From: Candidatus Omnitrophota bacterium
GTDB taxonomy: Bacteria > Omnitrophota > Gorgyraeia > Gygaellales > Profunditerraquicolaceae
Reading direction: 5' to 3'
Assembly: GCA_041308845.1 (NCBI GenBank)
Contig: JBFZAT010000026.1
Location: 41,102-105,101, forward strand
Length of the DNA stretch: 64,000 nt
Shown: positions 2,030 to 36,280 of the stretch, piece after piece
Numbering within the stretch: position 1 is the stretch's first letter
Layout of the letters: the number at the start of each line of letters is the position of its first letter
Translations under genes and position numbers: made by a program
Notes under the pieces: model-generated
What the model was told of the DNA's origin: nothing
The model's input: the letters and a program-made list of their open reading frames with translations, nothing else
Databases searched by the model: none

Positions 2030-3175
2030 ATGTTATTAAGTAAAAAAAATATAAACAATAAGGTATGCGTACGCACTTTCGGATGTCAGATGAATGTCCG
2101 GGATTCGCAAGTAATTTCTGGCCTACTGCGGCAAGCCGGCTATCAAATTAGTGCTACGGATCAAGATGCCGATATAATTATTTTCAACACCTGTGTGGTG
2201 CGTAAACACGCTGAAGACCGGGTTTGGAGTTTAATCGGCAGCTATAAAGGTTCTAGAATTATTGGTTTAGTAGGATGTATGGCGCAATATTTTCAAGAGC
2301 GGGCATTTGAGCGCGATTCTAGTATTAGCTTTGTTGTCGGCCCGCAAGATATCCACAAGCTCCCGGAGATTCTCAAAAAGTTCAGAGTGAAGAATTTATT
2401 TGAGGCTAAGGTGTGGGAGACGCAAGGAACTGTACGGCCCGAAGAAATTTACCACACCGAGTTTTCTCCGACTGCTCAACATGCTTATGTAGTAATATCC
2501 GAAGGTTGTTCTAATTTTTGCGCATATTGTGTGGTGCCTTATGTTCGGGGAACTTTACGTCACCGCAAGCCGCAAGATATTTTAACAGAAATTAAAGAAG
2601 CGCTTAATCAAGGAGTAACCCAGGTTACCCTCTTGGGGCAGAATGTCAATGCTTATCAGGCGGATCGGGTAAATTTTACCCAGCTGCTCAGTAAGGTGAA
2701 TGCTTTAGTTGGCTTAAAGGAGTTTGATTTTTTTACTTCACACCCTAAAGATGCCAGTTGTGATTTATTTAAAGCTATTCGCGACCTGGATAAGCTAAAG
2801 AAACGGTTACATCTACCGATACAGTCCGGATCAGACCGTATCTTGAAACTGATGAATAGGGGGTATGGCGTAAAAGATTACTTGGCTTTAATTGATTCTT
2901 ATCGTAAAATTGTTAAAGCCGGGTGGTTAAGTACAGATATTATCGTAGGCTTTCCTACTGAAACTACCAAAGAATTTCAGGAAACTTACGCCCTAGTTAA
3001 AAAGGTCGGGTTTAATGCTGCTTATATTTTTAAGTATTCTTTACGGCCCGGCACGCAAGCGGCTAAACTGCCAGATCAACTTAAGCCCGAAGAAAAAAAT
3101 AAACGCCACCAAAGAATTTTAGATTTACAGAGGGAGATTTCTCAAACATTAAGGAGTCGGTTGAATAATGGCTAA
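2030..3175 (+). CDS. miaB: MiaB-family radical-SAM methylthiotransferase; appears to lack a C-terminal TRAM domain
   Basis: N-terminal MTTase motif FGCQMNVRDSQ and radical-SAM CSNFCAYC. AAGGGG RBS at 2015-2020 precedes the ATG at 2030; the ORF track starts at TTG 2012. miaA follows. Confidence 0.7.
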   Translation: MLLSKKNINNKVCVRTFGCQMNVRDSQVISGLLRQAGYQISATDQDADIIIFNTCVVRKHAEDRVWSLIGSYKGSRIIGLVGCMAQYFQERAFERDSSISFVVGPQDIHKLPEILKKFRVKNLFEAKVWETQGTVRPEEIYHTEFSPTAQHAYVVISEGCSNFCAYCVVPYVRGTLRHRKPQDILTEIKEALNQGVTQVTLLGQNVNAYQADRVNFTQLLSKVNALVGLKEFDFFTSHPKDASCDLFKAIRDLDKLKKRLHLPIQSGSDRILKLMNRGYGVKDYLALIDSYRKIVKAGWLSTDIIVGFPTETTKEFQETYALVKKVGFNAAYIFKYSLRPGTQAAKLPDQLKPEEKNKRHQRILDLQREISQTLRSRLNNG

Positions 3176-3926
3176 AACTAAATTTATATTAATTGTTTTA
3201 TTTTTGTTTGCCTGGCCGGGTTTTTCCAAGGCTGCCTCTTTAGATTCAATAAAGGCTGATTTTTTAAATGGCGACTATGCGCGGGTAATCGCAGAAGGCC
3301 AGGCTCAGCTTGGGCGGGCGCCGCGGGCTAATGCCGATGAGTTAAACTATATTTTAGGATTAAGTTATCTTAACCAGTCCAAATTTGATCTGGCTCGGGC
3401 CTGTTTTAAGAGTATTTTGAATAATTCAGACAGTAAATTTCAGGAAGAGTCATATTTAGCCTTGGGGGATACTTATTTAGTTTCTGGTCAGTTTGCTCAG
3501 GCTGAGCAGATCTACAATAAAATAATTGTTGATTATCCGAATACCCGACAAAAAGCTGCAGTTTTATATCGTTTAAGCCAGCTGGGTTTTAAACAGGGAG
3601 ATCAGCAAAAGGGTAACAATTATTGGTTGCAACTTAAGAGCGATTTTCCGTTTAGCCCGGAATTAAGATTAAACCAAGGGTTGGTTACGGCGAGCAATTT
3701 TGTAAGTTCGGATGATGAATATTCTGTACAAGTAGGTTTTTTTGAAAATAGCGCTAACGCCAACAATCTAAAAAATTCTTTATTGGGCAAGAATTACCCA
3801 GCCTACGTAGAGAGTTTTAACAATGGTTTCCGGGTTAGAGTGGGGAAATTTAAAACAAAGCATGAAGCGTTAGAATCAGCTAATAAGCTTTCCCAAGAAG
3901 GGTTGCAAACCAAAATTTATCCGTAG
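3168..3926 (+). CDS. TPR-repeat protein with a C-terminal SPOR (peptidoglycan-binding) domain, signal peptide
   Basis: N-terminal signal-like segment, TPR-like helical repeats, and a C-terminal YSVQVGFFENSANANNLKNSL...FRVRVGKFKTKHEA SPOR pattern. Confidence 0.55.
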   Translation: MAKTKFILIVLFLFAWPGFSKAASLDSIKADFLNGDYARVIAEGQAQLGRAPRANADELNYILGLSYLNQSKFDLARACFKSILNNSDSKFQEESYLALGDTYLVSGQFAQAEQIYNKIIVDYPNTRQKAAVLYRLSQLGFKQGDQQKGNNYWLQLKSDFPFSPELRLNQGLVTASNFVSSDDEYSVQVGFFENSANANNLKNSLLGKNYPAYVESFNNGFRVRVGKFKTKHEALESANKLSQEGLQTKIYP

Positions 3927-3932
3927 CATTCC

Positions 3933-4859
3933 ATGCAAAAGAAGAATATAATTTTTCTCCTGGGGCCGACTGGAATAGGTAAATCATCAGTAGCGGTAAG
4001 TTTAGCCAAAAAGATCAAAGCTGAGATTATTTCCTGCGATTCTATGCAGGTTTATCGCAAGATGGAGGTGGTTACCTGTCAGCTGAAGCCTCGGGAAAGA
4101 AAAGTAATCAAACATCACTTGATAGGGGTGCTTAAACCGCAACAAGAATACAACGCGGCAAGATACCGCCGGCAAGCGCTGGCGATCTGTGACCAGTTAT
4201 TTACTCAAGGCAAAATTCCCCTATTTGTAGGCGGGACCGGTCTTTATTATTCGGTGATTATTGACGGGCTATTTCCAGCTGTACCCCAGGATAAATTAAT
4301 TCGCGTTAAACTGGAAAAACAGCTTAAAACCAGGGGCAGCCAATATCTTTATCGCAGGTTATCTCAGTTGGATAGCCAAGCAGCCGCTAGAATTCACCCG
4401 CATGATTCTAGAAGGATAATTCGCGCCCTGGAAGTATACTTAAAAACCGGAACCAGGATTTCTCAGTTGCAGAAAAACCGGGTTGGTCTAAATAAAGATT
4501 ATAAGGTTAGAATTTTCGGGTTAAATGCAAACCGGGCGATGATTTACAACGCGATTGATCGCAGGGTTGATCAAATGTTTAACCAGGGATTGCTAAAAGA
4601 GGTCAAAGCTTTGCTTAAATATAAATTGAGTCGTACGGCTAAATGTGCGATAGGTATCCGGGAATTAAAGGGTTATTTTGACGGAAAATATTCTCTGGAT
4701 GAAGCCAGGCGGCTAATACAGCGTAATAGCCGCCATTATGCTAAACGCCAATTAACTTGGTTTAGGAAGGATAAGCGCATTCGTTGGATTAATATCAAGG
4801 TGGGGGATTCGCCGGTTACTGTGGCCAAGCGCATATTTAAATTTTTAGACTTAAGTTAA
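3933..4859 (+). CDS. miaA: tRNA dimethylallyltransferase
   Basis: P-loop GPTGIGKS and family-wide similarity; about 308 aa. Confidence 0.9.
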   Translation: MQKKNIIFLLGPTGIGKSSVAVSLAKKIKAEIISCDSMQVYRKMEVVTCQLKPRERKVIKHHLIGVLKPQQEYNAARYRRQALAICDQLFTQGKIPLFVGGTGLYYSVIIDGLFPAVPQDKLIRVKLEKQLKTRGSQYLYRRLSQLDSQAAARIHPHDSRRIIRALEVYLKTGTRISQLQKNRVGLNKDYKVRIFGLNANRAMIYNAIDRRVDQMFNQGLLKEVKALLKYKLSRTAKCAIGIRELKGYFDGKYSLDEARRLIQRNSRHYAKRQLTWFRKDKRIRWINIKVGDSPVTVAKRIFKFLDLS

Positions 4860-6685: not shown

Positions 6686-7420
6686 GTGTGTTCAGTAGAT
6701 TATAATTCCAGGAGAAAATCAGTCTTAAATGCAGCGATTAGTCGCTACATTAAGAATGCGCTTCCGGTGGCTTCCGATGATATCGCCGCGGAGTTTGATT
6801 TGAGTTCAGCGACTATCAGGAACATATTCTCTGAGCTTGATGAATCCGGATTTCTTAAACATCCTTACACTTCTGGTGGCAGGGTGCCTACTGACAAGGG
6901 GTACCGCTATTATGTGGATTTCCTAATTCAGCAAATGGAGCTGCTAGATGAAGAAAAGCAGCGTATCCTGAAGGAATGTAAAAGGAAGATTCGTCGGTTG
7001 GATGAAGCTTTGGAAAATACTTCGGAAGTAATCTCTGAAATTACACATTTTGCCGGTATTGTTTCATTTTTACAATGGCAGGACAAAATGTTCTATAAGG
7101 GTATCAGCCGGATAATCGACCAGCCGGAGTTTAAGGACGCCGATAAAATACGCCTGTTAATCAAGCTCATGGAGGACAAAAGTAAACTCCTGGATATTAT
7201 TAACCGGGATTTTTCGGGTAAAGTTAAAGTTTATATTGGAAGTGAATTGGGTTTTCCGGAGATGGAAAACTGCTCTTTAATTGTGTCCGGCTTTAAATTA
7301 AAAAATCAACCTTCGGGTAGATTGGCTGTGCTGGGGCCGATGCGTATGGAGTATGATCATATTATTCCAACGATGGAATATATTTCCGAGGTTTTAAACC
7401 AGATTCTGGAGGAATTTTAG
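6686..7420 (+). CDS. hrcA: heat-inducible transcription repressor HrcA (short form, 244 aa)
   Basis: N-terminal winged HTH and C-terminal GPMRMEYDH motif; gene order hrcA-grpE-dnaK-dnaJ. Confidence 0.85.
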   Translation: MCSVDYNSRRKSVLNAAISRYIKNALPVASDDIAAEFDLSSATIRNIFSELDESGFLKHPYTSGGRVPTDKGYRYYVDFLIQQMELLDEEKQRILKECKRKIRRLDEALENTSEVISEITHFAGIVSFLQWQDKMFYKGISRIIDQPEFKDADKIRLLIKLMEDKSKLLDIINRDFSGKVKVYIGSELGFPEMENCSLIVSGFKLKNQPSGRLAVLGPMRMEYDHIIPTMEYISEVLNQILEEF

Positions 7421-34191: not shown

Positions 34192-34220
34192 TTGCCAAAA
34201 ATCCCTAAAAATAGTAATAT
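34192..34220 (+). promoter_or_regulatory. sigma70-like promoter TTGCCA-N17-TAATAT upstream of the tRNA cluster
   Basis: TTGCCA 34192-34197 and TAATAT 34215-34220, about 40 nt before the tRNA. Confidence 0.5.
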
Positions 34221-34260: not shown

Positions 34261-34334
34261 GGGCCCATAGCTCAGTCGGTTAGAGCAGTTGACTCATAAT
34301 CAATTGGTCCGGGGTTCGAGTCCCTGTGGGCCCA
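34261..34334 (+). tRNA. tRNA with anticodon CAT; features favour tRNA-Ile2 (lysidine) over elongator Met
   Basis: Manual cloverleaf: acceptor GGGCCCA/TGGGCCC, D-arm GCTC-AGTCGGTTA-GAGC, anticodon stem GTTGA/TCAAT with loop CTCATAA, T-arm CGGGG-TTCGAGT-CCCTG. C4-G69 and C5-G68 in the acceptor and a TTGGTC variable loop resemble tRNA-Ile(LAU). Confidence 0.85.
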
Positions 34335-34450
34335 TTTATATAATTATTTGCGCATAGCGGCCACCCGGACCAAAAGGGGTGCGGGGAAAAGATCCCCGCG
34401 AATTCGGGGTAACAGCAAGCGCCATAGGGGCAGAGCCATTTGGAAATATA

Positions 34451-34478
34451 GTCCGGGGTTCGAATCCCTGTAGGCCAA
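34451..34478 (+). repeat. degenerate direct repeat of the tRNA(CAT) 3' end (T-arm plus acceptor 3' strand) with no matching 5' half
   Basis: GTCCGGGGTTCGAATCCCTGTAGGCCA here versus GTCCGGGGTTCGAGTCCCTGTGGGCCC at 34308-34333. No complementary 5' acceptor strand or anticodon arm could be built. Confidence 0.5.
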
Positions 34479-34570
34479 TTTTAGAATGCCATCCGGGGCA
34501 TGGTGTGGCCTGCGAACCTGGCAGGAATATACAGTTTAGTTTTGACAAGGTGGTTAAATAAAACGGTTAT

Positions 34571-34644
34571 GGGCGATTGGCTCAGTTGGTTAGAGCGCTA
34601 CATTCACATTGTAGATGTCAGAGGTTCGAGTCCTCTATCGCCCA
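34571..34644 (+). tRNA. tRNA-Val (anticodon CAC)
   Basis: Manual cloverleaf: acceptor GGGCGAT/ATCGCCC, D-arm GCTC-AGTTGGTTA-GAGC, anticodon stem CTACA/TGTAG with loop TTCACAT, T-arm AGAGG-TTCGAGT-CCTCT. Confidence 0.85.
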
Positions 34645-34675
34645 TTAAAATATCTCAACAGAGAGATTTCCTGAC

Positions 34676-35386
34676 ATGGATTTAAAAACTCAGCTTATTG
34701 GTTTAGTCAAGTTGCAGGAATTAGACAGCGAAATTTATGCTTTGGGGAATGAATTGGCAGCTAAACCTGAAGAAATTAAACTGCTAGAGGCGGGTTTTGC
34801 AGCTAAAAAACAGGGATTAACGCTTTTAGAGAAAAAATCATTAGATTTACAAAAACAGCGTAAAGAGCAGGAGCTTGAGCTGGCGACTAATGCCGAAGGA
34901 GTCAGAAAGCTCAGCGGTCAGCTGTTTTCTTTAAAAACTAATAAAGAATTCCAGACGATGCAGCAGCAGATCGCCGATGCAAAAGCGGATGCAGCGGTGA
35001 TCGAAGAGAAAATCCTGATTTCTTTCGAAGAATCAGATAAGATTAAAGCTCAGATAGATGCTGAGAACCTAAAACTTAAGGATGAAGAAAAGCTCTTTCT
35101 TCAGCAGAAGAAAAGCGTAGAAATGCGTATTCAAGAGATTGGCGACCGGTTACGCCAGCTGGATGCACAAAGAAAGCAGCTTATCCCTGGTATCGACCCT
35201 AAGATGCTACAGGAATATGAAAGAATTTTATCCAGCCGGGGCGGTTTGGCTATTGTTACGGTCAAGGATAATTCTTGTGGCGGATGCCATATGTTAGTGC
35301 CTCCACAGGTAATTAATTTAATTAAGATGTACGAACATATTGTCACTTGTGAAGTCTGTAACCGTATTCTTTATATTAAAGAATGA
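34676..35386 (+). CDS. COG1579-type coiled-coil protein with a C-terminal C4 zinc ribbon
   Basis: Long coiled coil, then CGGCHMLVPPQ...CEVCNRILY. This family commonly accompanies rnhA and rnpB. Confidence 0.7.
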   Translation: MDLKTQLIGLVKLQELDSEIYALGNELAAKPEEIKLLEAGFAAKKQGLTLLEKKSLDLQKQRKEQELELATNAEGVRKLSGQLFSLKTNKEFQTMQQQIADAKADAAVIEEKILISFEESDKIKAQIDAENLKLKDEEKLFLQQKKSVEMRIQEIGDRLRQLDAQRKQLIPGIDPKMLQEYERILSSRGGLAIVTVKDNSCGGCHMLVPPQVINLIKMYEHIVTCEVCNRILYIKE

Positions 35387-35799
35387 ACCATTTAGAGGTT
35401 TATATTGACGGGGCGTCTCAGGGTAATCCCGGGCATAGTGGAGTAGGGATCGTAATTTTTCATCATGGTTTACGGATTAAGAATATCTCAAATTATATCG
35501 GCAAGGCAACCAATAATGTCGCCGAATATACTGCTTTGATTTATGCTTTGGAAGAAGCGTTATTGCTGAAAGCTAAAAGCCTGAAAATTAATACCGATAG
35601 CCAACTCTTAGCCCGGCAGTTAAATAAAATTTATAAAGTTAAACATGCCGGGATAATAGGTTTATTTAACCGGGCGACTCATCTCTTAACCGGTTTTGAA
35701 AAAGTTGTAGTTAACCATATCCCCCGGGAAGAAAATAAGCTGGCGGATAAATTGGCCACCCAGGCGATTAATTCTTTTCTGGGAAAATCTTTGATTTAA
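35383..35799 (+). CDS. rnhA: ribonuclease HI
   Basis: 138 aa: DGASQGNPG (catalytic Asp), E in EYTALIYALEEA, TDSQ, and a C-terminal D in ENKLADKLA. Confidence 0.8.
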   Translation: MNHLEVYIDGASQGNPGHSGVGIVIFHHGLRIKNISNYIGKATNNVAEYTALIYALEEALLLKAKSLKINTDSQLLARQLNKIYKVKHAGIIGLFNRATHLLTGFEKVVVNHIPREENKLADKLATQAINSFLGKSLI

Positions 35800-36203
35800 G
35801 CAGGCAGAGTGTGGCTGCCCGCCACTATATCAGTGGCGGGAGGAAAGTCCGGGCTCCAGAGGGTAGCGTAACGGATAATGTCCGTCCTGTATAGTTAATA
35901 TGCAGAGGATCCCCGTTTAAAATCTAGCGGGGCCGCCATTTTCGGCGAAAGAGCCACAGAGACGAGTAACCGCTTTTAAAAGCGGCGAAGTGAAACGCGG
36001 CAATCTCTACGCGGAGCAAAGTAGAATAGGAGATGAGCGCTGATCCGGCGCGCTTTCCGCCTCGGCGGAAAACAATCTCGGGTAAACTGCTAAAGTTCTC
36101 GCGGTAACGCGGAAATTGAGAGGAATAGCCACTGCGATGTAGCATGCGCCTGCCTTGCCGGCAGGCGGGCATCAAGACAAAACCCGGCTTATTCTGCCTG
36201 CTT
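35800..36203 (+). ncRNA. rnpB: RNase P RNA (bacterial type A-like)
   Basis: Universal motifs GGGAGGAAAGTCCGGGCTCCA near the 5' end and ACAAAACCCGGCTTA near the 3' end; P1 pairing GCAGGCAGA (35800-) with TCTGCCTGC (-36201). ORF-track entry 35924..36175(-) lies inside it and is spurious. Confidence 0.85.
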
Positions 36204-36280
36204 TAATCTTAGACTGAACGATATATAATTTATCGGTAGATTACCGTATTAAACATCAATTAAACATTAAAGGAGGATTT

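Follow-up and report, generated by a model that had tools for sequence, protein, structure and literature searches.

A structured RNA-like module with arms matched to the adjoining tRNA, possibly a small mobile cassette, behind tRNA genes of Omnitrophota

REP/BIME, BOX, ERIC and Correia sequences are bacterial interspersed structured repeats or transposable elements of the miniature inverted-repeat kind (MITEs), and they are not known to have arms matched to a target or a covarying core that is deeply conserved. RNAs with two target-matched arms placed around a scaffold are represented by the pegRNA of prime editing and by the IS110 bridge RNA. Elements with tyrosine integrases use the 3' ends of tRNA genes as attB sites, and starts in the T loop or the variable loop are classical sublocations (Williams 2002 classification). 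Compact structured RNAs also occur beside phage tRNA genes, as the theta ribozymes (similar to those of hepatitis delta virus, HDV) exemplify (PMC10879173). Here, we compare with these systems a GC-rich segment that lies between two tRNA genes in 64,000 nt of DNA from a Candidatus Omnitrophota bacterium (assembly GCA_041308845.1, contig JBFZAT010000026.1, positions 41,102 to 105,101 of the forward strand); this whole stretch is called the window, and positions are counted from its first base.

We propose with high confidence (as regards the existence of the family and its architecture) that the segment, located in the 235-nt spacer between tRNA(CAT) and tRNA-Val (Table 1), is a member of an uncatalogued, widespread, ~100-base structured RNA-like module in Omnitrophota. 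The reading that we favour, with a probability of roughly 50%, is that a mobile but non-autonomous structured-RNA cassette of small size (~130-190 nt) is represented here by a copy in decay, the cassette being common in Omnitrophota and made up of an AT-rich leader, an antisense arm (X'), an invariant ~90-nt multi-helix scaffold and a sense 3' arm that runs through the discriminator base of the tRNA. The contrast in composition from which an initial annotation of the single sequence had started was borne out, as the GC fraction reaches 0.589 in the block 34350-34478 (59%, against 0.305, about 30%, in the immediate flanks and 0.413 in the entire window). Three features lie beyond such a single-sequence view: the antisense arm 5' of the core, the presence of the scaffold behind 25 kinds of tRNA and the degraded state of the window copy.

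By running a pattern made from the most conserved stretch on a metagenome collection, we recovered the scaffold family from at least 120 contigs (related loci are given below by L numbers). A covariance model (R1), built without the window sequence, finds 34370-34444 as the sole copy in the window (60.3 bits, E 3.8e-10, model positions 1-89), with an A-run, G tract 1 (34376-34379), helix Ha, a joiner with G tract 3 and UAACAG, a minimal hairpin Hb and helix Hc following one another. The structure was evaluated on a 48-sequence alignment with slid-partner controls and 500 shuffles: compensatory changes occur in 12 of the 23 pairs (106 cells versus 37 ± 5 in shuffles, none of the 500 reaching 106), and pairing falls from 86% to 40-62% when the partners are slid. 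The hairpin at 34381-34399, already singled out in the initial annotation, is real and constitutes the most conserved helix of the family (Ha, 99% of cells paired), with U-A/C-G covariation at pair 13-34 (UA 28, CG 17, UG 3). Hb is a variable hairpin of 8-110 nt in relatives (closing pair CG in 26, UA in 10, GC in 9), while Hc has a 3x3 internal loop, a GGGGC/GCCCC stem that is invariant in 48/48 seed sequences and a covarying extension of 2-3 bp (CG 38, UA 8). A further hairpin drawn earlier, CACCC...GGGTG (34362-34381), can indeed be formed and shows a few lineage-specific compensatory variants (CGCCC/GGGCG in L010, TACCC/GGGTA in L133), but it is not conserved family-wide; its 5' strand overlaps the tRNA-antisense arm.

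The joiners between the helices (AAAGGGGUG... and CG-YUUUY-GGGGURACAG) are invariant. In the 108 unique copies, the Hc internal loop has on each strand a middle base that covaries with the R of GGGGURACAG (GGGGU[A/G]ACAG, A[U/G]A, U[U/A]U), the state A,U,U being found in about 57 copies and G,G,A in about 37 (in the window: A 34411, T 34425, T 34440), a three-way covariation that points to a tertiary contact such as a base triple or a docking contact. The core nucleotides stay invariant at a local GC that varies between contigs from about 35% to 70%, and so extreme a conservation of the scaffold indicates selection acting on the structure itself. Wobble pairs, where they occur, are of the G-U kind on the tRNA strand. 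Intact copies score 83-101 bits with model R1. The window copy keeps Ha, Hb and Hc in order over the full model, together with its two arms (5' antisense, 3' sense). Its Hb is minimal, its Hc is broken (GCCAT for GCCCC, two unpaired positions), its closing helix is shortened to 7 bp and its tRNA-end copy has three changes; from these lesions we read it as a probably decaying family member.

Known classes do not account for the scaffold. ARAGORN and Rfam found no tRNA beyond the two flanking genes and no transfer-messenger RNA (tmRNA) in the window spacer, and the Rfam check that the initial annotation had proposed assigned no Rfam 15 family to it; at gathering score nothing was reported over the scaffold, either in the window or in the 10 intact-copy loci scanned, and permissive scans of the window gave noise-level matches only (beta_tmRNA 9 bits, Clostridiales-2 11.7 bits). 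The 5' third of the scaffold resembles the Clostridiales-2 RNA (RF02937) in having an A-rich run, GGGGUG, a GGGG/CCCC hairpin and CG; this is the sole resemblance to a database family, and it is limited to this third and stays below threshold (best scores of 22.4 bits, E 0.003, in L111 and 11.7 in the window, for a gathering score of 58.6). The middle of that model fails to align. Like the theta ribozymes, the core stands immediately 3' of tRNA genes and on the same strand (PMC10879173), but it differs from them by the leader and antisense arm placed between tRNA and core, by the tRNA-end copy, by the absence of phage association and by the lack of any match to HDV-like or other ribozyme models. 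Candidate assignments to HDV-like/theta, twister, hatchet or other known ribozymes or riboswitches were discarded (no model match, and hand mapping to the HDV fold failed). We found no description of such an element in the open-access full-text literature, although it may have been described elsewhere.

Both arms of the window copy have their template in the T arm and 3' end of tRNA(CAT), a gene in which CCA is not encoded and which is probably closer to tRNA-Ile2 (lysidine type) than to initiator tRNA, judging by its likeness to known tRNA-Ile2 sequences. The 3' arm comprises the T stem-loop, the acceptor 3' strand and the discriminator; the copy of the tRNA end that had been noticed at 34451-34478 is present, with an identity of 25/28 (24/27 over the last 27 nt) instead of the 25/27 first given, its three mismatches falling in the T loop and the acceptor strand, and the 64-kb window holds no second near-copy elsewhere. 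X' is complementary to the variable loop plus T stem 5' strand of the same tRNA (TTGGTCCGGG) and can pair with 34451-34457 of the 3' copy over 7 bp (10-13 bp in intact relatives) or, alternatively, with the tRNA upstream. In 69 related copies the leaders measure 10-100 nt and mostly begin with a T(A/T)AAAT-like sequence.

The same correspondence holds throughout the family. Directly 5' of the conserved A-run/GGGG stands an antisense stretch of 10-20 nt, whose sequence corresponds, in reverse complement, to a portion of the same tRNA's T-arm region (e.g., CCCGACCC for GGGTCGGG in tRNA-Thr, GGCAGGACTCGAACC for GGTTCGAGTCCTGCC in tRNA-Arg and GCCCCACGC for GCGTGGGGGG in tRNA-Phe), and X' becomes CGACGACCAA where the T stem of the host is GGTCGGAGG (L032, L040, L065, L112). 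The 3' copy, identical at 17-25 of 25 positions in relatives, ends with the tRNA, stopping exactly at the discriminator base (or at CCA, if encoded); where the repeat apparently runs on, the next cassette of a tandem follows (L057, L065, L067, L073, L078, L129). The longest exact match of the 3' copy has a median of 18 nt with the cognate tRNA versus 6 nt with tRNAs of other anticodons, the corresponding medians for X' being 8 and 5 nt. In orthologous Lys and Ile2 loci both arms mirror species-specific differences of T stem and acceptor. Many copies have a 3'-arm T loop that is changed at C56/G57 or interrupted by an inserted GC hairpin, so that a T-arm fold is precluded and the arm is left to pair with the antisense arm. 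As a separate observation, the first tandem cassette of L032 (3610-3669) has a 20-nt GC hairpin, CCTGCCTGCCGGCAGGCAGG, in the T loop of its tRNA-end copy, and T-loop insertions of this kind (UAG + hairpin + GGAG) mark an entire subgroup beside Gln, Lys(CTT), Arg and Asn tRNAs. An internal promoter made of the T loop (as -35) and a -10-like box at the leader start was considered and set aside, its spacing being inconsistent between loci.

These arms bear directly on the idea of a degenerate tRNA duplicate, put forward in the initial annotation, and on the related one of a permuted tmRNA-like or tRNA-like gene, which together we regard as the most improbable of all explanations. It is true that the segment has a T arm and the 3' strand of an acceptor stem, that TGGCCTG downstream (34506-34512) could pair with TAGGCCA, and that beta_tmRNA gives a match of 9 bits. 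That match, however, lies far below the tmRNA threshold of 84 bits, ARAGORN finds no tmRNA, no tag reading frame exists, and only 64 nt are left between the candidate tmRNA 5' strand and tRNA-Val; the acceptor-like pairing returned by RNAalifold (GGGU-GCCC) fits the Ile2 sequence only. The absence of a 5' acceptor strand, D arm and anticodon arm, was correctly recorded in the initial annotation for the window; as to the 5' acceptor strand it extends to the family, since such a strand was found in 2 of the 69 leaders (3.2 expected by chance), and this family-wide absence rules out a tRNA-like gene.

The link to tRNA genes was assessed by running ARAGORN on oriented copies. Among the matches listed, 51 of the 79 full-sequence copies have a same-strand tRNA ending at most 200 nt upstream, and the neighbouring tRNAs all share the strand of the scaffold (108 versus 0 on the opposite one). 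The upstream genes belong to at least 25 isoacceptor types (including Thr, Lys, Ile2/Met, Gln, Arg, Ser, Leu, Phe, Val, Ala, Trp, Tyr, Asn, Glu and Gly), and the same idiosyncratic Hb hairpin, CCGCCAAGTTTTGTGGCGG, is found beside Lys, Ala, Gln, Ile2, Phe and Thr tRNAs. The earlier suggestion of an unrecognised structured small RNA holds as far as the core is concerned (strongly conserved, covarying, uncatalogued and on the tRNA strand); the promoter proposed for it, TTGCCA-N17-TAATAT at 34192, does not stand out from shuffles, as it matches the consensus at 9 of 12 positions only and two such sites were found where 1.4 are expected. The three open reading frames (ORFs) that overlap the segment (34336..34548-, 34379..34561+ and 34500..34685+) exist as listed and span tRNA and structured-RNA sequence; we agree in taking them as spurious, since a conserved antisense ORF cluster across loci merely tracks the RNA.

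The state of the same tRNA locus in relatives, a comparison that had also been proposed, was followed in 47 syntenic loci fetched via the zinc-ribbon protein gene downstream (titles Omnitrophota/Omnitrophica, with a few 'uncultured Planctomycetales'), and the insert proved to be present in some and absent from most. Considering the 45 loci with both tRNAs, the spacer measures 3-36 nt in 27 and 49-457 nt in 18; nine contain scaffold homologues (L002, L009, L010, L025, L026, L029, L032, L038 and L040), with a 5'-truncated copy in L002 and two tandem copies in L032, and scaffold fragments were seen in L021, L036 and L037. Each full copy in these loci ends in the 3' end of its own host tRNA, and where the T arm of the host differs (GGTCGGAGGTTCGAACCCTTC in L032 and L040) the 3' copy has the same version; in L010 the 3'-copy junction reads AATTGG versus ACTTGG in the host tRNA. 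Filled sites have, from the 3' copy to tRNA-Val, the same few bases that make up the entire spacer of empty ones (as GAATATATTAA in L009 against GAATATATTGA in L015), and hence the insert behaves as a clean unit at the tRNA end.

With the elements that integrate at tRNA genes the cassette shares a direct 3'-end repeat that brackets it and extends from the T loop or variable loop to the end of the tRNA, as well as an intact tRNA and empty sites in relatives; it departs from them in its size (130-190 nt), in the lack of an integrase, in the use of one core for 25 tRNAs, in its extra antisense copy of the T arm and in the RNA-type covariation of the core. In the same way, the scar of an integrated element suspected in the initial annotation is supported by the direct repeat around an insert missing from most relatives (25/28 in the window), but the insert is a complete unit of ~130-190 nt and no integrase was found at more than 120 loci. 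We therefore weighed an ordinary attL/attR scar, in which a large integrase-borne element (a prophage or an integrative and conjugative element) would have entered the tRNA 3' end and later been deleted to an att-proximal piece, and we consider it very unlikely: the start of the repeat in the T or variable loop and its run to the exact tRNA end are as expected for it, whereas the same core recurring between repeats at 25 tRNA species is not, the antisense arm beside the core would have no role, and neither an integrase nor kilobase cargo was met with (nor any integrase-like ORF beside the window site). No integrase occurs in the neighbourhood within the window, as first stated, and a recurrent protein partner is missing too, given that clustering of all ORFs of 90 aa or more in the 4-kb neighbourhoods of 122 copies yielded only synteny-specific clusters and the artefactual antisense ORF over the RNA. 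A link to phages was likewise rejected, the sole viral-contig match being a chance match within a coding region.

Family membership, the structure, the neighbour-matched arms, the site polymorphism and the strand bias are direct observations; from the polymorphism, the many target loci and the tandem and truncated copies we deduce, with moderate confidence, that the cassette is probably mobile. A mobile element fits better than a fixed host gene because presence and absence are clean, tandem, truncated and decayed copies exist, many tRNA loci are occupied, the Hb hairpin is shared between them, the junction in L010 deviates, and no gene partner accompanies the copies. As for the recombination route and the function at the RNA level, which we infer, X' would, on the tRNA strand, close the scaffold by pairing with the first part of the 3' arm, the real tRNA being its alternative partner. 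The cassette would enter a tRNA locus by a single crossover, or by a homology arm, via the tRNA-end repeat, leaving the tRNA undamaged, and recombination between the two tRNA-end repeats would remove it precisely; entry and exit through this repeat would give filled sites, empty sites, tandem arrays and remnants. The antisense arm might be rewritten by template-switch correction of the inverted repeat that it forms with the adjacent T arm. The scaffold is the selected part; most probably it is a domain of RNA, ribozyme-like or protein-binding, dependent on a flanking helix, and such a role at the RNA level is favoured by the conservation of the scaffold, the strand bias and the copies in 5' untranslated regions (UTRs) described below.

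Several points weigh against the mobile cassette. No enzyme or mechanism of movement was found near the copies and no circular or excised form was seen. The patchy distribution could be explained by one old insertion followed by many losses. The rewriting of the antisense arm for each new tRNA is not explained by the model, the template switch being suggested only. Conservation of the scaffold, orthologous orphans (L081, L099, L101, L144; see below) and the 5' UTR copies before ribosome-binding sites would fit a host function equally well, and sequence cannot separate RNA from single-stranded DNA as the structured molecule. Thermodynamic folding alone gives no single common fold (minimum-free-energy folds vary between copies), and for that reason we relied on the comparative structure; similarly, a crude longest-helix test for closure in cis did not separate own downstream sequence from foreign sequence (8.15 versus 7.78), so that arm specificity is supported by the comparison of exact matches to tRNAs. 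Finally, the metagenome contigs lack taxonomic assignment.

A bolder version of the mobile cassette, which we hold to be doubtful, would make it an RNA-directed element of a new class: together its two arms, the 5' one antisense and the 3' one sense, would read both strands of the T-arm region as a two-armed guide, the scaffold would be a new ribozyme or a handle for an unlinked enzyme homing to tRNA genes, and the arms would be rewritten between 25 tRNA species. The layout is analogous to that of pegRNA and IS110 bridge RNA (a 5' segment complementary to one strand of the DNA site, a scaffold and a 3' segment matching the other strand), and the two arms are, as in pegRNA, complementary to each other; the cassette differs from both in its arms of 8-34 nt, in lying beside its own target and in having no known partner protein, and the analogy concerns the layout only. 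If the cassette is what we propose, a compact Omnitrophota element of ~100 conserved bases and no gene would have come to stand behind at least 25 tRNA kinds via arms matched to each target, providing a natural reprogrammable nucleic-acid module and a new structured RNA family, candidate for catalysis or for ligand or protein binding. The cassette also accounts for a class of 'spacers' of high GC, and of spurious ORFs, found in the tRNA operons of bacteria without cultures, and gives annotators a model for masking; in practice, the window segment is to be taken as a degraded member of the family and not as a tRNA or tmRNA gene.

The scaffold also occurs in settings other than behind tRNAs. Eight copies make up the whole 5' UTR of unrelated genes, with a hairpin (GGTTCTTTCG...CGAAAGAACC) adjoining AAAGGGG and the end of the scaffold at the ribosome-binding site; approximately nine lie inside elements with terminal inverted repeats (CTAGTGTGCTGTCC...GGACACGACACTAG) that frequently start in a stop codon; seven 'orphans' have a tRNA-Gln-like tail, no tRNA upstream and the same neighbourhood in several contigs; and several copies are simple-hairpin forms. 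In L121 (8095-8426) one copy lies antisense between the 23S and 5S rRNA genes, with a 38-nt duplication on its two sides whose end is no more than 3 nt from the 5S 5' end; the 5' arm of this copy, CCCGTTCCC, is complementary to the beginning of the duplication. The rule of arm matching is thus limited neither to tRNAs nor to the transcribed strand. In all settings a helix stands directly 5' of AAAGGGG, either loop-closed or formed with the distal 3' arm, and hence we view the forms as circular permutations of one architecture. In the elements with terminal inverted repeats each end was seen to fold back onto an internal copy, and the left CTAG is often the stop codon of the upstream gene.

The structured molecule might instead be DNA. 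In its size, its non-coding, multi-copy, intergenic and hairpin-rich nature, its presence or absence between relatives, its tandem or mosaic arrangement and the terminal inverted repeats of some copies, the cassette resembles the REP/BIME, BOX, ERIC and Correia repeats, from which it differs by a core conserved at the nucleotide level at about 35-70% GC with covariation of the tertiary type, by arms rewritten for each adjacent tRNA and by an absolute strand bias (108 to 0). As regards terminal inverted repeats of the MITE kind, one subgroup has classical ones, and X' and X are inverted T-arm copies around the core, the right 'repeat' of the tRNA-linked form running on into the acceptor strand. 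The tRNA-linked copies show no target-site duplication outside X' and X, and no parent transposase-bearing insertion sequence was found among the loci examined.

GCGAAGC-type and tandem G-A units are very stable as DNA, and the guide sequences of IS608 pair with the flank upstream of the insertion point. An interspersed single-stranded-DNA repeat, moved by a hairpin-recognising enzyme acting in trans (of the REP/BIME-RAYT or IS200/IS605 kind), could thus be envisaged, in which the strand bias would mirror the direction of replication and the hairpins and flank-complementary arm would serve as DNA recognition and guide elements. The scaffold hairpins are rich in units of both types, a segment inside the element pairs with the flank upstream of the insertion point, MITE-like copies have hairpinned ends, and one copy runs antisense to rRNA transcription. 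We nonetheless find this explanation unlikely, considering that the 4-kb neighbourhoods (as judged by ORF clustering only) contain no Y1/HUH gene, that a target duplication of 17-34 nt is not known as a feature of that family, that the 5' UTR copies occupy the exact interval from promoter to ribosome-binding site, and that the G-U wobble pairs on the tRNA strand fit RNA at least as well.

The 5' UTR copies bring up a further possibility, to which we would give some tentative credit: a co-transcribed, host-beneficial RNA whose target is its own tRNA transcript. Its antisense arm would hold either the real T arm or the decoy 3' copy and the scaffold would gate folding or processing of the tRNA, with spread being secondary. 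The scaffold might then, with the same tentative standing, bind a ligand or a protein or act as a self-cleaving ribozyme, and in the 5' UTR copies it would control access to the ribosome-binding site. All 108 neighbouring tRNAs lie on the scaffold strand, the layout X ... X' ... X permits two mutually exclusive pairings, and the 5' UTR copies run from the hairpin to the Shine-Dalgarno sequence/ATG (that of L160 with a good TTGACA-17-TATTAT promoter just upstream). Moreover, the permutation between a loop-closed helix (5' UTR form) and an open one (tRNA form) beside AAAGGGG is known from small ribozymes, the joiners are invariant and take part in three-way covariation, and the orphan copies are kept in synteny. 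On the other hand, the genes downstream are unrelated (spoVG-like, HU-like, response regulator, transporter-like and others) and form no coherent regulon of the riboswitch type, most copies following tRNAs. Most close relatives do without the element at the same tRNA locus; many copies, that of the window included, are decayed or truncated; one is antisense to an rRNA operon; in several loci terminator-like hairpins separate tRNA and element; and no known ribozyme or riboswitch model matches.

Table 1. Features of the tRNA(CAT)-tRNA-Val locus in the window, with its downstream neighbours, and the related copies that have terminal inverted repeats
Feature	Position or locus	Strand	Basis or remark
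Host tRNA, anticodon CAT	34261..34334	+	ARAGORN; Rfam tRNA, 73.5 bits
AT-rich leader TTTATATAATTATTTGCGCATAGCGGCCA	34335..34363	+	sequence; compared with leaders of 69 related copies
5' arm X' CCCGGACCAA	34364..34373	+	reverse complement of tRNA positions ~43-52, TTGGTCCGGG
Conserved scaffold	34370..34444	+	covariance-model match, model R1
Helix Ha, GCGGGG-AAAAGAT-CCCCGC	34381..34399	+	48-sequence alignment
Invariant joiner G-AATTC-GGGGTAACAG	34400..34415	+	column statistics, 108 unique copies
Minimal remnant of variable hairpin Hb (CAAG), then conserved CGCC	34416..34423	+	comparison with relatives
Helix Hc with 3x3 internal loop (ATA GGGGC AGA GCCAT TTGG)	34424..34443	+	alignment to model R1
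3' arm, sense copy of tRNA(CAT) 3' end	34451..34478	+	25/28 identical
Extra spacer outside scaffold family	34479..34569	+	hairpin + GGTGTGGCC...GGCAGG motif
tRNA-Val(CAC)	34571..34644 (34570/1-34644/5 between callers)	+	ARAGORN, Rfam
Zinc-ribbon protein gene	34676-35383		just downstream of tRNA-Val
RNase H-like ORF	35383..35799		directly before RNase P RNA gene
RNase P RNA gene	35798-36207		ARAGORN/Rfam survey of window
Terminal-inverted-repeat copies	L049, L054, L080, L084, L093, L116, L130, L154, L158		~230-330 nt (~235 typical; L080 longer)

Downstream of tRNA-Val, the order zinc-ribbon protein, RNase H and RNase P RNA is also found in L038, and a spurious antisense ORF of 83 aa (35924..36175) overlaps the RNase P RNA gene of the window.

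A looser pattern retrieved a GC-rich two-hairpin motif, GGGGUGC-AGGGG..CCCCU-GC-C-GGGGURC-GGGGC..GCCCC, upstream of phage genes in viral contigs of 70% GC (L174, L175, L176 at 6972-7030, L194, L202). With model R1 it scores 17-35 bits overall (31-35 bits in these five contigs), and with Clostridiales-2 18.8 bits; it lacks the middle third of the scaffold and has no tRNAs nearby, and it was not counted as part of the family. It could be a distant or minimal relative, or simply a set of GC-rich hairpins. In a contig of ~65-70% GC (L105, 4632), the scaffold occurs in a GC-rich version whose 5' hairpin is simple and which lies in the upstream region of dnaA (3154-4455, minus strand), between this gene and a PHP-domain ORF, and the family may thus reach beyond low-GC Omnitrophota.

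The tRNA ends and spacers harbour other recurrent structures. The part of the window spacer that follows the cassette (34479-34569) contains a hairpin and, after it, a G(G/C)YGTGGCC-N3-8-GGCC/GGCAGG motif, which recurs in the same spacer of L005 (~3480-3560) and L010 (~1000-1060) and may represent another small insertion module; in L010 a motif of the G(G/C)YGTGGCC type splits a second, truncated scaffold copy between AAAA and GGGTG. A second structure starts immediately after tRNA ends or tRNA-end copies and is composed of an AT-rich hairpin (e.g., TGAATTTTTACGAAGTAAAAATTCA) followed by CTTCGnnCG...CATCTAGTnTAAGnnCGAAGGAG (L002 3490-3560 and 3670-3740, L005 3315-3400, L010 911-985, L042 3706-3780); it also follows cassettes in L079, L115 and L152, and had no Rfam match as far as the scans of those loci reached. 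Upstream of tRNA-Val, partial copies of the 5' part of this gene (GGGCGATTGGCTC...), followed by unrelated hairpins, were seen in the spacers of L005, L010, L026 and L031, and L009 (3743-3816 and 3903-3975) has two tRNA-Val genes; it thus seems that the 5' side of tRNA-Val also collects inserts.

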